IMG/VR virus record: IMGVR_UViG_2534681701_000006
Length of the DNA stretch: 38,081 nt
Direction: 5' to 3' (one strand)
Origin: a virus
Taxonomy: Duplodnaviria; Heunggongvirae; Uroviricota; Caudoviricetes
This document shows, one piece after another, positions 13,200 through 38,079 of this stretch. The notes under the pieces were generated by a model. The model saw only the letters and a list, made by a program, of their open reading frames with translations, had not been told where the DNA came from and searched no databases. Positions within the stretch are counted from its first letter, which is position 1, and each line of letters starts with the position of its first letter. A program made the position numbers and the translations under genes.

Positions 13200-13550
13200 A
13201 TGAAAAACCTGAAAAAATTCATTCCCCCTGTTAAAAAACCTCGCCTCAGCGGCTGGCTGCTGACCTCAGTGCTGTTGCTGGGCACCATCGCTCTGGTCTC
13301 ACCACAGCAGCTGCCTGTTGTGATCTACAAGCTGGCACTCATCACGCTGGCAGCAGTGCTGGGTTACTGGCTTGACCGTTCGCTCTTCCCCAAAGCCCGT
13401 CCCGGTCAGTACCTGAAACATGACGACAGGCTGATGGCTGAAGGGCGTTTCCCGGTACAGACCGGCCTTCACCTGGTGTTTTCTGCTGCGTTAATCCGCC
13501 GTGCACTGATTGTTGCAGCGGTCTGCCTGGCTGTTGCGATGGGGCTTTAA
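13200..13550 (+). CDS. membrane protein with three predicted TM segments, putative holin
   Basis: AAGGAGA RBS 5 nt before ATG at 13200; three hydrophobic helices; first gene of the lysis cassette. Confidence 0.45.
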   Translation: MKNLKKFIPPVKKPRLSGWLLTSVLLLGTIALVSPQQLPVVIYKLALITLAAVLGYWLDRSLFPKARPGQYLKHDDRLMAEGRFPVQTGLHLVFSAALIRRALIVAAVCLAVAMGL

Positions 13551-13552
13551 TC

Positions 13553-14293
13553 ATGAACTGGCCGCAGATCACCTGGATTGTATGCATGTCCCTGAAACTG
13601 GCTTTCGAAGCCTTTCGGGTCTTCATCAGAACCGAACGCCTGTCAGTCCGCGCCGGGACCTTTCTGGTTCATATGGCATGGGTATTCTTTGTCGCAATGT
13701 TGCTCTGGTGTGGCGGCTTTTTCAGCCAGGCATGCGCAGCACAACCTCCGCAGGCTGCGCTGCAGTATCGCGATGATGTGATCCGTAATGCCCGGCTTGA
13801 ATGGGGACTGTCTGCGCCGGTGGCCGATTTCGCCGCGCAACTGCATCAGGAAAGCGGCTGGCGACCTGATGCGATCTCGCCGGCTGGCGCTCAGGGACTG
13901 GCGCAGTTCATGCCTGCCACTGCCGACTGGATAAGCCAGTTGATACCGATGCTGAGCAGTCGTGAGCCGTTTAATCCGGCATGGGCTATCCGGGCGCTGG
14001 TCAGCTATGACCGCTGGCTGTGGCAGCGTGTCAGCGCCGCCAGTGACTGCGAGCGTATGGCCATGACACTGTCGGGCTATAACGGTGGTCTGGGCTGGGT
14101 ACAACGGGACAGGCGGCTTGCATCACAGAAAGGTCTGGACAGCACCCGCTGGTTCGGACATGTCGCCACGGTGAATGCCGGACGCAATGCGGCCAGCTGG
14201 CGGGAGAACCGCCATTATCCGCAGCGCATCCTGCACGAACTGGCACCGCGATATCTCACATGGGGAGGCAGCAGTTGTGTGGCATCTGGTTAA
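13553..14293 (+). CDS. endolysin, lytic transglycosylase (SLT domain), possible signal-anchor N-terminus
   Basis: SLT signature (…QLHQESGW … AQGLAQFMPAT …); hydrophobic stretch AWVFFVAMLLWCGGFF before the catalytic domain. Confidence 0.7.
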   Translation: MNWPQITWIVCMSLKLAFEAFRVFIRTERLSVRAGTFLVHMAWVFFVAMLLWCGGFFSQACAAQPPQAALQYRDDVIRNARLEWGLSAPVADFAAQLHQESGWRPDAISPAGAQGLAQFMPATADWISQLIPMLSSREPFNPAWAIRALVSYDRWLWQRVSAASDCERMAMTLSGYNGGLGWVQRDRRLASQKGLDSTRWFGHVATVNAGRNAASWRENRHYPQRILHELAPRYLTWGGSSCVASG

Positions 14294-26585: not shown

Positions 26586-26921
26586 ATGTCACAGACCCCA
26601 TCCGATACTTTTAAATTGTCTTATCCCTTCACCACTGCTGCAGGCACCAGAATTGAGCTGGTTGAACTGAAACGCCTGACGGTAAAAGACCTGAAGCAGG
26701 TGCGCAAAATCAGCAAAAACCCGGCAGACTGGGACGAACCGCTGATTGCCCGCAGTACTGGTCTTCTCCCGGAGGATCTCGACAATATGGATCTGGCTGA
26801 TTACCTGCAGTTACAGAAACGATTTCAGCTCATCACGGGGATGGGTGAGAGCAACCAGGGCGCTGACGCAGGCGCAGGGGCTGCTGGCGAGATGGTTCCG
26901 GTTTCAGCCGGGGGAGATTGA
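26586..26921 (+). CDS. tail assembly chaperone (P2 gpE-like), 111 aa
   Basis: Position directly upstream of the tape measure gene; acidic C-terminal half. Confidence 0.55.
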   Translation: MSQTPSDTFKLSYPFTTAAGTRIELVELKRLTVKDLKQVRKISKNPADWDEPLIARSTGLLPEDLDNMDLADYLQLQKRFQLITGMGESNQGADAGAGAAGEMVPVSAGGD

Positions 26922-27003
26922 TGCCCTCGATACTGACGATCTGGAGATGTGGCTGGAGCAGGCTGAAGAGCAAATCAAAAGCGAGTACGGCGACAAATCA
27001 TAG
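26746..27003 (+). CDS. +1-frame extension of the tail assembly chaperone (gpE+E'-like frameshift product, C-terminal part)
   Basis: Overlaps the end of the chaperone ORF in the +1 frame; a shift at the G5 run (26906..26910) joins …VSAGG to EIDALDTDDLEMWLEQAEEQIKSEYGDKS. Confidence 0.45.
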   Translation: MPAVLVFSRRISTIWIWLITCSYRNDFSSSRGWVRATRALTQAQGLLARWFRFQPGEIDALDTDDLEMWLEQAEEQIKSEYGDKS

Positions 27004-27078: not shown

Positions 27079-30030
27079 ATGTCGGGACAGTTTTCAGTCG
27101 GCGTTGTTATCGGCGGGATGATTGGCAGCACATTCCGTTCTGCAATGAGCGGTACCCGCCGTGCGCTTGATTCCCTGAGCGATACCTCACGCCGCCTGCA
27201 GGAACGTCAGAACGCTTTAACCCGTGCAACAGAACGTTATGGTCAACTGGGTTCTTCCCGGATGCAGCATCTCAACAGCGAGCTGCTGCGGGTAAGCCGC
27301 ACCATGGAGCAAATTGAGCGCCAGCAGCGCCGTCTGTCAGCGGCATCCGCTACCAGTGATGCGCTGAAAGCTAACCGCATGGCGCTGTATGGTCAGGGGA
27401 TTGAAGCGTATGGCATGGCACAGACTGTTTATCATACGGTTTCCCCTGCCGTTCAGCAGTCCATGTCTTTTCAGGACAAAATGATTGATATGTCGATCAC
27501 CGCAAAATATGACAATAAAACGCGGGATGCACTTGCCGGACAGATAAAAGGCTGGGCGCTTAAATACAATCAGTATCAGGATGAGCTGCAGGAGGCGGTG
27601 GGTTCACTCATCAGCGACAATATTGATAATGTGTCAGATATCGGTTTTCTGATGCCGGATATTGCCCGCGCGGCAACGGCAACACGCACGTCTGCTCAGG
27701 ACTGGGCAAAAGTGGCCGCAGTCTGGCAAAACTCCCTGAAAGGTGCGGCCAGAGATTTTGGTGCCGTTCAGAATATTATGGCTTATGCCGGTGACCAGGG
27801 GTCATTTGAAATCCCGGATCAGGTCAAGTGGATGCAGTCCCTGGCCCCAATGATGGCGGGTATTGCCAGTGGAAAAGAGGCTGTTGCTGAAATCGGGGCC
27901 AGTCTCCAGATAGCAAAAATCGGTGCAGGTTCCACCGACGAAGCAGCCAATAATTTTAAAAACTTTCTTACCAAAATTTTTGCCCGCGATACTCAGAAAC
28001 AGTTTGCTGATCTGGGTATTGATTTGCAGGGATCTATTGCGAGTTATAAGGCTGCGGGGATCTCTCCGATTGAAGGGATGTTGAGTGTTATAGAACGTTA
28101 CCTCAATGCCAAAAGCCCCGAAGCGCTGGCCGGCTTCAAATCCGCCATGAAAATAAAGAATGATACGGCAAGAGATGAGGCACTTCAGGCTCTGGCGAAA
28201 AACTTTGGTCTGGGTGATATGTTCGCGGATATGCAGGTCATGGCATTTATCCGCCCGATGCTGGCCAACATGGACAGATATCGAGAGATCCGTGCCGGTG
28301 CTCTCAGGGCTGCGGATAACGATTTGCTTGCCAGTGCTTACGATCAGCGACTGAAATCTCCCCTTGAAGCCACTAAAACACTTATGGTCAGCAGTCGCGA
28401 TCTGGCAATTACGCTGGGCGATCAATTAGCTCCATCTTTTATTTCTTTGACTCAGGAACTGCTTCCACTCATTCAGGGGGCAAAACACTGGGTAGCGACT
28501 CACCCGCAATTTGTCAGTGGGGCTTTTAAGCTCATCAGTGCGCTCCTTGCGATTAAGATAGCGACTGTTGGTCTCAAACTGGGGCTGAATCTCCTTATTT
28601 CCCCCTTTGTAAGTGTCTGGAAAAATGCTGTTTTACTCCGGACCAACTGGCATCGACTGACTACCGCACTCGGAGAAGGTGGCAAATTACGCTGGCTTGT
28701 CACTGGATTCAGCCGACTGACCAGCGGAGGACTGAAACTCAGCAAAGTTCTGGCGGGCAGCCTCGTTCGCGGTTTTATGAGCGCTGCACGTGCCGTTCTC
28801 TGGATTGGGCGAGCGCTGATGATGAATCCCATCGGTCTCGTTATCACCGCTGTCGCGGCAGCAGCTTACCTTATCTACCGCAACTGGGGGGCTGTCAGTG
28901 GTTGGTTTAAACAGCGCTGGGCTGACATTCAGGAAGCCTTTAACGGCGGCATTGTGGGAACTGGTAAGTTGCTGATTAACTGGTCGCCGGCAGGCCTGCT
29001 CTATAAAGCCTTTGCGGCTGCGCTGAAATATTTCGGCGTTGCTCTGCCGGCAAAGTTCACCGACTTCGGTGGCCATCTTATCGACGGTCTGATTAACGGT
29101 ATCAAAAACAAATGGGGGTCGCTCAAATCCAGTGTAACCGGAATGGGTGACAGCATCAGTAGCTGGTTTAAACAGCGCTGGGCTGACATTCAGGAAGCCT
29201 TTAACGGCGGCATTGTGGGAACTGGTAAGTTGCTGATTAACTGGTCGCCGGCAGGCCTGCTCTATAAAGCCTTTGCGGCTGCGCTGAAATATTTCGGCGT
29301 TACTCTGCCGGCAAAGTTCACCGACTTCGGTGGCCATCTTATCGACGGTCTGATTAACGGTATCAAAAACAAATGGGAGTCGCTCAAATCCAGTGTAACC
29401 GGAATGGGCGACAGCATCAGTGGCTGGTTCAGCGAAAAGCTGGGCATTCATTCGCCGAGCCGCGTGTTTATGGGCTTTGGTGACAATATCGCGCAGGGGG
29501 CCGCCATTGGCCTGCAGCGGACCACTCCGCTTGCAGCTCTGGCCGGGCAGCGAATGGCCAGTGAACTGCTCCCCAAAATGCCCGTGAGCATTCAGGGGCC
29601 AGAAATACGGGATAACACTTCAGGTGTTCGCTTCAGTATGCCGTTGCCCGATATCAATGGGTTTATGTCGTCTGCTAAAAATGCGATCGGAGCCGTAATC
29701 AATAGTTTGTCTTCCATGCCCGCTATTCCGCTCTCCACCCGGGCATCGATTTTACCAGGGCAACGTCTGGCAAATGAGATGACACCGGATGTTCCCCGTA
29801 TCCCCTCGCCTGAAATCCTGGCTGCCGGATATTCAGGCCGTGGTGCAGCTGCAACCGGCGGTGGAACGTCTGGTGGTATCCAGGTCAGCTTTAATCCTCA
29901 GTTTTTCCTCAATGGCAGGGAAACCACAGCGCCTGCAGGACTGACTGGTGCCCTGAATATGAGTCTGCATGAGCTGGAAAAAATGCTGGAGCGTCTGCTT
30001 GCTCAGAAACAACGTAAGGAGTACCGCTGA
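27079..30030 (+). CDS. tail tape measure protein, 983 aa, containing an internal tandem duplication
   Basis: Largest ORF in the tail module; GGAGG RBS; Ala/Gly-rich hydrophobic central region. Confidence 0.85.
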   Translation: MSGQFSVGVVIGGMIGSTFRSAMSGTRRALDSLSDTSRRLQERQNALTRATERYGQLGSSRMQHLNSELLRVSRTMEQIERQQRRLSAASATSDALKANRMALYGQGIEAYGMAQTVYHTVSPAVQQSMSFQDKMIDMSITAKYDNKTRDALAGQIKGWALKYNQYQDELQEAVGSLISDNIDNVSDIGFLMPDIARAATATRTSAQDWAKVAAVWQNSLKGAARDFGAVQNIMAYAGDQGSFEIPDQVKWMQSLAPMMAGIASGKEAVAEIGASLQIAKIGAGSTDEAANNFKNFLTKIFARDTQKQFADLGIDLQGSIASYKAAGISPIEGMLSVIERYLNAKSPEALAGFKSAMKIKNDTARDEALQALAKNFGLGDMFADMQVMAFIRPMLANMDRYREIRAGALRAADNDLLASAYDQRLKSPLEATKTLMVSSRDLAITLGDQLAPSFISLTQELLPLIQGAKHWVATHPQFVSGAFKLISALLAIKIATVGLKLGLNLLISPFVSVWKNAVLLRTNWHRLTTALGEGGKLRWLVTGFSRLTSGGLKLSKVLAGSLVRGFMSAARAVLWIGRALMMNPIGLVITAVAAAAYLIYRNWGAVSGWFKQRWADIQEAFNGGIVGTGKLLINWSPAGLLYKAFAAALKYFGVALPAKFTDFGGHLIDGLINGIKNKWGSLKSSVTGMGDSISSWFKQRWADIQEAFNGGIVGTGKLLINWSPAGLLYKAFAAALKYFGVTLPAKFTDFGGHLIDGLINGIKNKWESLKSSVTGMGDSISGWFSEKLGIHSPSRVFMGFGDNIAQGAAIGLQRTTPLAALAGQRMASELLPKMPVSIQGPEIRDNTSGVRFSMPLPDINGFMSSAKNAIGAVINSLSSMPAIPLSTRASILPGQRLANEMTPDVPRIPSPEILAAGYSGRGAAATGGGTSGGIQVSFNPQFFLNGRETTAPAGLTGALNMSLHELEKMLERLLAQKQRKEYR
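28903..29424. repeat. near-perfect tandem duplication, 2 x 261 bp (87 codons), inside the tape measure gene
   Basis: TGGTTTAAACAGCGCTGGGCTGACATTCAGG… recurs at 28903 and 29164 with only a few mismatches across the unit. Confidence 0.9.
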
Positions 30031-30914: not shown

Positions 30915-31126
30915 TGTTTCTTGAACATGTTACCCGTGACGGAGAGCGCTGGGATTCGCTGGCATGGCAGTACTACGGTGACCCGCTGGGCTATCCCCGG
31001 ATTATTGCCGCCAATCCGCACGTGGCCATCACGCCGGTGCTGCCCTCCGGGCTGTTGTTACTGATCCCGGTGATTGAGGCTGAAGAAGCCCGTACAGAAG
31101 AGGATATTGCCCCATGGCTGAGATAA
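30911..31126 (+). CDS. tail protein X-like (LysM-like fold), 71 aa
   Basis: Small protein with a gpX-like pattern (…WDSLAWQYYGDP…AANPHVA…); overlaps its neighbours. Confidence 0.5.
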   Translation: MMFLEHVTRDGERWDSLAWQYYGDPLGYPRIIAANPHVAITPVLPSGLLLLIPVIEAEEARTEEDIAPWLR

Positions 31127-32270
31127 ACAGCACTGCGCAAGTCACATCAGCGTTAACCGGCGTCAGCGATGTGCTGACACCGGTGTTCACTCTGTGGTAT
31201 CTGCAGAAAAACATCACCTCTGATATCGCGCCTTATGTCACCCGTGTGACCTGGAGCGATAACATCAAAAATGAGTCCGATACCATTGAGGTGGAGCTGG
31301 ACGACACCGATGGCCGCTGGCTGGATAAGTGGTATCCGGGCAAGGGTGACACGCTGACGCTGAAAATGGGCTATCAGGGCGAGAAGCTGCTGTCCTGCGG
31401 TACGTTCTCTATAGACGAGATCGAAGTGAGTTCGCCCGCTTCCGTTGTTTCTATCCGTGGGGTGGCCACCTCGGTTAACAGTGCCCTGCGGACTAAAACC
31501 AAGTCGTGGTTTTGAGAACACCACGCTGGCAGCTGTTGCGGGGCGGATTGCCAGAAAGCACCGACTGAAACTGGTGGGCAGCATTGAGTCCATCAGAATC
31601 GACCGGGTGACCCAGTATGCTGAAACCGACGTGGGTTTTCTGCGCCGGCTGGCCAGCGAGTATGGTTATGCAGTGAAAGTGGTCAGTGACCAGCTGATTT
31701 TTTCTCATCTGGCCACACTGCGCAGTCAGGAGCCGGTCAGGCAGTTAAAACCGCAGGATGTGGCCCGCTTTTCCCTGCGTGACACCATCAACCGGGTCTA
31801 TAAATCTGCAAAGGTAAAACACCAGAAAAGCAGCAGTAAAAAACTGATCGTCTACGAAGCTGATGGTGGTACCCGTGAAAGCGACAAAAAAGCTCAAAGG
31901 TGGTAAGGTTACCAGCGCTGACTCACTTAAAGTTAACAGCCGCGTCAGCGACCCGGACAGTGCCCGGATTAAAGCGGATTCAGCACTGGCCAGACATAAC
32001 GAATACCAGCAGAACGGCTCCCTGACGCTGACGGGAACACCTCAACTGACAGCAGGCAACAAAATTGAACTGGTGGGTTTTGGGCAGTTATCCGGGCCAT
32101 GGCTCATAACCACTGCCCGCCATGCGTTTGACCGTAACAGCGGCTACACCACAGAGCTGGAAGTGGCACGGGGGCCAGTCACAAGAGGGAAAAAACAAAA
32201 AACTCAGAAACTCACGGTTTATCACCCGGATGGCAGTACATCGACGGTGATTAAGGAGAAGAAAAAATGA
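31114..32270 (+). pseudogene. baseplate hub gene (P2 gpD / Mu P-like) split into three ORFs by two frameshifts
   Basis: ORFs 31114..31515, 31445..31906 and 31863..32270 occupy three frames and together span 1157 bp (~385 codons); shifts fall near a T4 run (31509..31512) and an A6 run (about 31886..31891). Confidence 0.55.
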
Positions 32271-34932: not shown

Positions 34933-36224
34933 ATGGGAAACCTGAATGAAACAGAAAAGTGGGAAGAAAATATCTATCAACTGGAGACATCAGATCCGGT
35001 TCTGGGTGGTGCAGACGGGATATCAAATCGAGCCCCCGGCAACTGGCAAACAGGACGAAATGGCTGAAGAAGAAAACGGAGGAAGCCGCACAGTCACTGG
35101 CTGAACACGTACGTTCCCGTAACCACCCGGACGCGACACTGACAGCTAAGGGGTTCACCCAACTGAGCAGTGCCACCAACAGCACCTCTGAAACGCTGGC
35201 CGCCACACCAAAAGCGGTCAAGGCTGCATACGACCTGGCAGCCGGCAAGGCGCCTGCCAGCCACACTCACCCGTGGAGTCAGATAACGGGAGTGCCTGCG
35301 GCTTCACTGACGGCAAAAGGCACCGTACAACTGAGCAGCGCCACGGACAGTCAATCAGAAACTGAGGCTGCCACGCCGAAGGCGGTCAAGGCTGCATACG
35401 ACCTTGCAGCCGGCAAGGCGCCCGTCAGCCACACTCACCCGTGGAGTCAGATAACGGGAGTGCCTGCTGCCTCGCTGACGGCAAAAGGCACCGTACAACT
35501 GAGCAGTGCCATCAACAGCACGTCTGAAATACTGGCCGCCACACCGAAAGCGGTCAAGGCTGCATACGATCTGGCAAACGGAAAACAACCGGCAGATGCC
35601 ACGCTCACTGCTCTGGCAGGACTTGCCACTGCAGCAGATCGGTTGCCTTATTTTACCGGAGCAGACCGCGCAGCGCTGGCAACCCTTACAGCTATTGGTC
35701 GCGCTATTATCGCTAAGGGCAGTATAAAAGATGTCCTCAATTACCTTGGTTTGGGGGAAGGCTCTGCATTGCCTGTTGGTGTACCGGTTCCATGGCCCAC
35801 CGCCACACCGCCAGCAGGCTGGTTAAAGTGCGACGGGCGCGCCTTTACAAAAGAACAATATCCTGTTCTGGCCAGAGTCTACCCGACCCTCCGTCTTCCC
35901 GATTTACGCGGTGAGTTTATCCGTGGATGGGACGACGGGCGCAAGATTGACGAGGGGCGTAAGTTGCTTTCATGGCAGAAAGGTACACTGGTCGGCGGTC
36001 ATGACGATAACGATTCTTCGCTTGATATCTCGTACATGAGTAACGGAAATAATATTGACTATGGCGGCGATAAGGTGTTTGCGGGGAATTACCGTAGCGA
36101 TTATTTGTGGTACGTAATTCTGGGTGGAACAAACAGTCGCGCAAAAGCCGAATTAAACGGAGCATTCTTTAACATAACCCGCCCCCGCAATATCGCGTTT
36201 AACTATATCGTGAGGGCGGCGTGA
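34933..36224 (+). CDS. tail fibre protein with an apparent frameshift in a C5 tract (35034..35038) and phage tail-fibre repeats
   Basis: ATG at 34933 encodes MGNLNETEKWEENIYQLETSDPVLGGADGISNRAP, which resembles tail-fibre N-termini as I recall them, then hits a stop; the long ORF continues in another frame from 34959. Three ~56-aa repeats; conserved C-terminal NYIVRA. Confidence 0.7.
35745..35944. repeat. left arm of ~200-bp perfect inverted repeat flanking the invertible tail-fibre cassette
   Basis: Identical in reverse complement to 37166..37362; invertase half-site-like sequence (GGTTTGGGGGAA) at its outer edge. Confidence 0.8.
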
Positions 36225-36845: not shown

Positions 36846-37357
36846 TAAACTGCCCTCACAATGTAATTAAGTGCAATGCTACGGGGTCTGACAGTGATAC
36901 CCTTCGCATACCCGCTTCTGATAGAGGTCAGAATAGTAGCCTGCATACCATTGTCTGACATTGCCACGACAGGATCGCTGAATGTTGTCCCGTCCGGCAT
37001 TTTAAAGCTGCCCTCACGAAGGTCTGTAATGGAATCTTCATTGTTGAATCCCATGCCGACTATCCCCGAGGTTCCCGTAGTGTCCTGGTTATAATAATCC
37101 AGCATTGCTGTTCTTAACAGCGTTGCCCCTTGTGCGGACAGCAACTTACGTCCTGTATCAACTTTGCGCCCGTCGTCCCATCCACGGATAAACTCACCGC
37201 GTAAATCGGGAAGACGGAGGGTCGGGTAGACTCTGGCCAGAACAGGATATTGTTCTTTTGTAAAGGCGCGCCCGTCGCACTTTAACCAGCCTGCTGGCGG
37301 TGTGGCGGTGGGCCATGGAACCGGTACACCAACAGGCAATGCAGAGCCTTCCCCCAA
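36845..37357 (-). CDS. alternative tail fibre C-terminal cassette (S'v-like), with no start codon of its own
   Basis: First ~64 aa are identical to an internal segment of the plus-strand fibre (inverted repeat), then diverge; ends in NYIVRAV, paralleling the expressed fibre. Confidence 0.6.
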   Translation of the reverse strand: MGEGSALPVGVPVPWPTATPPAGWLKCDGRAFTKEQYPVLARVYPTLRLPDLRGEFIRGWDDGRKVDTGRKLLSAQGATLLRTAMLDYYNQDTTGTSGIVGMGFNNEDSITDLREGSFKMPDGTTFSDPVVAMSDNGMQATILTSIRSGYAKGITVRPRSIALNYIVRAV

Positions 37358-37362
37358 ACCAA
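37166..37362. repeat. right arm of the inverted repeat flanking the invertible tail-fibre cassette
   Basis: Reverse complement is identical to 35745..35944. Confidence 0.8.
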
Positions 37363-37428
37363 CGTTTATCTCTCAAATCCTCCCCACATTATCTCAGTAC
37401 TTTAACCACTCAAAAGGGAGTATTTTTA

Positions 37429-38032: not shown

Positions 38033-38079
38033 TGCCATTTATCGCACAAGATAGAGTGCATTTATCGCGCGGCGCATCA
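38033..38079. other. putative prophage right end: two direct repeats (CATTTATCGC) ending in …GCGCATCA, resembling Mu attR transposase-binding sites
   Basis: GCCATTTATCGCACA and GCATTTATCGCGCGG about 25 bp apart; resembles the Mu right-end R sites as I recall them, and Mu-type ends terminate in CA. Confidence 0.3.

Follow-up and report, generated by a model that had tools for sequence, protein, structure and literature searches.

The window analysed here, a 38,081-nucleotide stretch of Caudoviricetes DNA (IMG/VR record IMGVR_UViG_2534681701_000006), is the entire contig AQET01000047.1 of draft assembly GCA_000356165.2 and represents a BcepMu-like transposable myovirus prophage that is common in Escherichia coli ST131. 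Its tail tape measure protein (TMP) gene contains an in-frame tandem repeat of 261 bp, the two units of which are almost identical, and an earlier sequence-only reading of the window had taken this near-identity as the mark of a recent duplication of a single-copy ancestor. Comparison with related genomes favors a different explanation, which we consider likely as a whole, in which the repeat is a two-unit array of an old 87-codon length module that has been reshaped by unequal recombination or gene conversion. The features concerned are the following.

27079..30030, plus strand: tail tape measure protein gene, 983 amino acids (aa), which holds the repeat (open reading frame [ORF], family profiles and synteny)
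28895..29155, plus strand: repeat unit 1, A type, 261 nt or 87 codons (Tandem Repeats Finder, repeat finder and pairwise alignment)
29156..29416, plus strand: repeat unit 2, a hybrid with AC at positions 6 and 8 (the start of a unit at an internal junction), a body of A type and, at positions 223 and 254, a tail of B type (variable-site tables)
29176..29346, plus strand: homogenised (A-type) tract in unit 2, where the 15 mismatches to the A-B allele of USVAST219 are clustered (alignment)
29417..29429, plus strand: 13-nt start of a further unit, TCAGTGGCTGGTT, which encodes S-G-W-F and is a short direct repeat flanking the module (Tandem Repeats Finder and sequence comparison)

The ORF at 27079-30030 is assigned to the tail tape measure proteins by its family profiles and its synteny. 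It matches PF10145 [PhageMin_Tail, E 2e-20, 74 bits (cut-off 33.2), residues 159-340], TIGR01760 [tape_meas_TP901, E 5.6e-16, 58.5 bits (cut-off 28.8), residues 119-493] and phrog_28 ("tail length tape measure protein", E 3.7e-136). In the gene tables of the window contig and of USVAST219, a complete-genome prophage, the gene lies downstream of the sheath gene, the tube gene and a chaperone pair, and upstream of homologues of gpU, X, D, V, and W.

Tandem Repeats Finder reports one array at 28895-29429 with a period of 261, 2.0 copies, 97% matches, no indels and a score of 1035, while a repeat finder gives 98% identity for 28895-29155 versus 29156-29416, and an adjacent 261-nt repeat at this level of identity cannot be of chance origin. 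By pairwise alignment the two units differ at five unit positions, 6, 8, 147, 223, and 254, and in the codon-aligned register (28903-29163 versus 29164-29424) there are four nucleotide and three amino acid differences (A to T, G to E, and S to G). The sequence TCAGTGGCTGGTT forms the start of each unit, and because it recurs just past unit 2 the register is free to shift by 13 nt; the 8-nt offset between 28895-29416 and 28903-29424 is immaterial and both registers are valid. Both units are in frame within the single ORF, and hence the near-perfect in-frame 261-bp repeat that the sequence-only reading placed in the tape measure gene is borne out by the repeat searches, the alignment and the family profiles alike. 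A blastp search with the unit as query found no older, degenerate copy in the remainder of the TMP below E 0.5. The aromatic residues of the unit are at positions 3, 4, 8, 15, 29, 36, 39, 45, 46, 54, 57, and 73, and an 11-residue aromatic periodicity was looked for inside the 87-residue unit and was not seen. ORFs on the minus strand that run across the repeat (such as 28687-29451) were treated as mechanical by-products of the repeated sequence and not as genes.

The age of the two-unit arrangement can be judged from relatives, whose loci are designated here by L numbers. Five two-unit alleles taken from complete genomes (L008-L012) have an A-type unit 1 and a B-type unit 2 that differ at 16-20 of 261 sites, with a synonymous divergence (dS) of 0.15-0.21 and a ratio of nonsynonymous to synonymous divergence (dN/dS) of 0.19-0.31, and both units are therefore under purifying selection. 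The sequence-only reading had noted that a divergent two-unit layout shared among relatives would count against a recent event, and this is largely what is found, as most relatives carry A and B units diverged to this extent. Judged by this divergence, the two-unit layout is old and not recent.

The alleles with other unit numbers are mosaics of the same two unit types. The middle units of three-unit alleles have a B-type start and an A-type end, with breakpoints at positions 8-21 (L002, L021) or 61-75 (L004), which is what a misaligned exchange between A and B units predicts, and the array of L022 is A-B-B. L006 and L019 have single units of A type to position 101 and of B type from position 122, and the switch point in L020 differs. 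Since the single units of these three alleles are A/B hybrids, they are deletion products and not ancestors, the hybrid status of single-copy alleles being based on these three closely related alleles, which were examined at the nucleotide level. The protein sequences show four or more patterns among middle units and five or more among single units. This diversity of hybrid units with differing breakpoints indicates that unequal crossing-over has probably been recurrent, and the natural occurrence of one-, two- and three-unit alleles and of these hybrids strongly supports the suggestion of the sequence-only reading that recombination at the repeat can change its copy number. Close alleles thus differ in copy number and carry hybrid units with varied breakpoints, as do coding variable-number tandem repeats (VNTRs). 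In the outgroup L007 the single unit is flanked by an imperfect copy of the 13-nt direct repeat, which is a plausible seed of the original duplication.

The window's own allele can be placed among these relatives. Its unit 1 is identical to unit 1 of L017 and is one nucleotide from unit 1 of L012 and of L002, while its unit 2 combines the AC at positions 6 and 8 with an A-type body, which includes 147A, and with B-type bases at 223 and 254. When positions 20.4-33.3 kb of the window are aligned with USVAST219, which has an A-B allele that is otherwise near-identical, 15 mismatches fall within a 171-bp tract and only nine in the remaining ∼13 kb, one of which is in unit 1 (29041); the breakpoints of the homogenised tract are at unit positions 9-20 and 192-222. 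A single background, defined by TMP flanks that differ from those of the window at no more than 3 of 2430 nt, includes four array states, namely A-B (L012), A-A′-B (L002), A-A′/b (the window) and A-A′-A′/b (L017), and a second homogenised two-unit allele (L018) is found in another background. Isolate 30345_1#186 is an example of an A-A′-B array and MLI114 of a one-unit allele. The near-identity of the window's units is best read as homogenisation by recombination and not as a sign that a single-copy gene was newly duplicated.

If a single-copy ancestor had recently been duplicated de novo in tandem, and the units had diverged only since, this would explain why just 5 of 261 positions differ between them. 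Single-copy TMPs do exist, and a short direct repeat, TCAGTRRCTGGTT, surrounds the module even in single-copy outgroups and is a possible seed for such a duplication. However, the bases at 223 and 254 are the B-type bases of the nearest A-B and A-A′-B relatives, and the third difference, 147A, is also present in L002 (unit 2) and in L012 (unit 1). Moreover, the flanks are almost identical to those of alleles that already hold diverged A and B units, all three of the closely related single-copy alleles are hybrids and so derived, and the truly divergent single-copy forms (821 aa) are just 87-90% identical. A recent origin, as proposed by the sequence-only reading, is hence very improbable.

In the history that we prefer, homogenisation of an old array, the module would have been duplicated long ago into two units that diverged as A and B, and these would then have been the substrate for unequal homologous recombination and gene conversion. 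The population now holds in-frame alleles of one, two and three units (896, 983, and 1070 aa) and many A/B hybrid units. The anatomy of the array, its polymorphism among genomes, the hybrid units and the purifying selection on both units are direct observations, and the recombination mechanism and the effect on tail length are inferred. The simplest history for the window would start from an L002-like A-A′-B allele in which units 2 and 3 underwent a single unequal crossover with a breakpoint at 192-222; alternatively, unit 2 may have been converted by unit 1 in an L012-like A-B allele.

The sequence-only reading also cautioned that the repeat could be an assembly artefact, and such caution is justified by a draft contig, its homopolymer indels and an allele that is unique. 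Relative to USVAST219, to which the window is 99.4% identical over the aligned 19 kb, there are three 1-nt homopolymer indels at 31501, 31886, and 35033. The first two are insertions in A-runs that split late control D (gpD, window 31114-32270), a single coding sequence (CDS) of 1155 nt in related complete genomes, into three ORFs. The third is a deletion in a C-run that frameshifts the tail fibre gene (34933-36224) ∼33 codons past its start, leaving the rest in another frame. All three look like draft-sequence errors, real pseudogenes in a defective prophage being possible. In the record of Escherichia phage PhiKM (PQ738613) a gap inside the repeat (13434-13760) splits the TMP into two CDSs, and evidently short-read assembly fails at this locus. 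As units whose identical stretches exceed the length of short reads can collapse, and as L017 has a homogenised three-unit array in the same background, two units are best taken as a minimum for the source strain. More generally, since short-read assemblies break or may collapse at the repeat, the TMP lengths of draft genomes are not to be trusted at face value.

The true array could on these grounds be a different one, either three or more near-identical units as in the homogenised array of L017 or an ordinary A-B pair, which the contig represents by a collapsed or chimeric path. The indels that break gpD and the tail fibre gene, the collapse to two copies expected of units identical beyond short-read length, the PhiKM gap at exactly this place and the restriction of the exact window protein to a single contig are all in keeping with such an artefact. 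On the other hand, position 147 and the junction bases tell the two assembled units apart, which means that the reads were not simply merged, and an A-B array has a difference every ≤35 nt, which an assembler would not rewrite as A-A. The same hybrid terminal unit (L017) and another homogenised two-unit allele (L018) are moreover present in independent assemblies. An artefact of this kind is therefore rather unlikely.

The frequency of each unit number was determined by a census of 5,426 complete E. coli genomes with two stringent queries. A unit query found 1473 units in 629 genomes and an internal-junction query found 780 junctions in 572 genomes, and with arrays counted as units minus junctions there are 693 arrays, of which ∼9% are single, 70% double and 21% triple, assuming that none is above three units. 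Evenly spaced genome samples agree with these proportions. No array above three units was found, the longest protein among the best 120 matches (1084 aa) holding two units, and the two genomes examined that have five and six units each carry a three-unit array, so that the extra units are in a second prophage. In complete genomes the three-unit alleles are intact 1070-aa ORFs (L002-L005, L021, L022) and the one-unit alleles are of 896 aa (L006, L019, L020), and a large protein collection has the same classes of 896, 983, and 1070 aa [for example, P0025 (983 aa, 1995 member sequences) and P0115 (896 aa, 435 contigs)]. The comparison of TMP length with that of related prophages that the sequence-only reading had called for thus gives three classes that correspond to one, two and three units. 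In more remote relatives at 87-90% identity (L007, Klebsiella phage KP12) the TMP is of 821 aa and has a single unit. No prior description of this unit-number polymorphism was found within a limited coverage of the literature.

Some TMPs depart from these length classes. The two-unit TMP of L011 (NZ_OZ547152) is of 961 aa, 22 codons short, and has a 66-nt deletion upstream of the repeat, and the protein collection includes several TMP variants of 956-979 aa, some of them partial sequences. This suggests that TMP length may also vary outside the 87-codon module. In addition, the three-unit TMP genes of L002, L003, and L005 (NZ_OZ039818, NZ_OZ547143, and NZ_CP015159) are RefSeq pseudogenes ("incomplete; missing C-terminus", or split in two), yet each translates as an uninterrupted 1070-aa ORF. 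Several three-unit TMP genes that are intact are thus called pseudogenes by NCBI's PGAP pipeline, apparently because the repeat misleads the annotation.

Tail length is known to be set by the length of the tape measure and to increase with internal duplications, and the ring spacing of contractile tails is near 4 nm. In the established ruler model the tube, and here also the sheath, would grow along the TMP as far as its end, and each unit would add 87 residues to this ruler. In phage TP901-1, deletion of residues from the repeat region and from the hydrophobic region of the TMP shortens the tail proportionally, an N-terminal TMP duplication lengthens it, and the T4 TMP also sets tail length (PMC5099701), while a value of ∼0.15 nm per residue fits phage phiCbK (PMC3556154). 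By analogy with these phages, each unit is predicted to give ∼13 nm of extra tail, or roughly three tube/sheath rings. Applied to the whole protein, the figure would give tails of roughly 134, 147, and 160 nm for one, two and three units. A further feature of the TMP bears on this prediction.

28510..28878, plus strand: TMP hydrophobic segments, residues 478-508 and 579-600, directly upstream of the repeat (Kyte-Doolittle scan)

That the units directly follow these hydrophobic segments allows another interpretation, according to which the repeat is real and unit number is without effect on tail length, the module being folded, ejected or membrane-associated and its variation neutral. In line with this, several PHROG families of TMPs share a conserved region that is matched by the C-terminal half of the unit, which suggests more than a spacer, and in a 2026 survey myovirus TMPs were mostly without tandem repeats (PMC13585406). 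The TP901-1 deletions, however, shortened tails proportionally in both the repeat and the hydrophobic regions (PMC5099701), and here the ORFs are intact in all three length classes with dN/dS below 1. We therefore regard the absence of any effect on length as improbable. At the other extreme, and in our view equally doubtful, the array might be a contingency-type locus that moves an ST131-widespread prophage among three tail lengths, all of them kept by selection (e.g., for reach through a capsule or O-antigen of differing thickness). If true, this would be the first adaptive natural tail-length polymorphism in a contractile-tail phage.

Several points weigh against the proposal that the window holds an old length module reshaped by recombination. 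The exact window TMP (983 aa) was found on no contig but the window's own, no complete genome has a match above 98.5% over 28600-29700, and some of the hybrid units are from draft or metagenome assemblies and could be assembly chimeras. The last event may have gone either way, as the loss of one of three units and conversion within two units both fit. As for tail length, the helical rise of 0.15 nm per residue is an assumption. The AF2 single-sequence model of residues 561-830 is mostly helix by DSSP and is of low confidence, with a mean pLDDT of 43 in the repeat region. Finally, with gpD and the tail fibre gene frameshifted as assembled, the prophage may make no tails.

The nearest phage record is PhiKM, which is filed under Bcepmuvirus, and related TMP genes are in 636 of the 5,426 complete E. 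coli genomes, many of the 636 being O25b:H4-ST131. The alignment with USVAST219 reaches window position 38079, the start of a truncated ssuB annotated there. The contig appears to stop at the prophage end, which would fit a transposable phage with variable or repeated flanks. The chaperone genes upstream of the TMP gene are as follows.

26586..27003, plus strand: tail assembly chaperone pair, a Phage_TAC_7 ORF (26586-26921) and an overlapping GpE-type ORF (ORFs and annotation of homologous loci)

Other repeats are present further downstream in the window. The tail fibre gene has a second in-frame tandem repeat at 35160-35576, with a period of 168 nt (56 codons), 2.5 copies and 85% matches, and offsets in the BLAST coordinates imply that this gene is ∼300 bp shorter than that of USVAST219. 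An inverted repeat of 229 nt (96% complementary, 35743-35971 and 37137-37365) encloses 1165 nt with tail-fibre and fibre-assembly ORFs and is adjoined by a recombinase-family gene (∼37.3-38.0 kb, from homologous annotation). From this arrangement, the segment looks like an invertible host-range switch of the Mu G-segment type.

The natural series of 896-, 983-, and 1070-aa TMPs in near-identical backgrounds, in a prophage very common in clinical E. coli, could serve to test the ruler rule for the contractile tail of a Mu-like phage and to study any influence of tail length on host range or fitness. It is comparable to the changes in TMP length known in lambda gpH, T4 gp29 and TP901-1, in that an in-frame internal duplication or deletion is expected to alter tail length proportionally, and T4 gp29 indicates that the length rule holds for contractile tails too (PMC5099701, PMC13585406). 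Those cases are mostly laboratory constructs, whereas here a natural series of one, two and three units occurs in hundreds of E. coli genomes. The closest phage, PhiKM, has a TMP gene that is 97.9% identical and the same late-gene order, with the sequencing gap of its record inside the repeat.

The gain and loss of internal units is likewise a known mode of TMP evolution. Belcaid, Bergeron and Poisson described TMPs that evolve by internal unit duplication and loss and that have variable numbers of 11-residue aromatic repeats (Belcaid et al., 2011, PMC3271669), and Mahony et al. propose that TMP repeats ease the duplication and deletion of domains and thereby adjust tail length (PMC5099701). 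The module described here resembles those TMPs and the TP901-1 repeat domain in being gained and lost as internal units. It differs from the TMPs of Belcaid et al. in that its unit is of 87 and not of 11 or 18 residues and its aromatic residues are irregularly spaced, with no fixed spacing of Trp and Phe. It differs from both in that the host phage has a contractile tail, a class reported to be mostly without TMP tandem repeats (PMC13585406). The array also resembles the coding VNTRs, or minisatellites, of bacteria, with copy-number polymorphism in near-identical backgrounds, hybrids with varied breakpoints and homogenisation of neighboring units. It differs from them in its long unit of 261 nt, in being seen in one to three copies, and in showing no sign of high-frequency switching within a strain or of a regulatory role. 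The general principle, that TMPs duplicate and lose internal units, is hence already known, and what this case adds is the within-species polymorphism of an 87-residue module.

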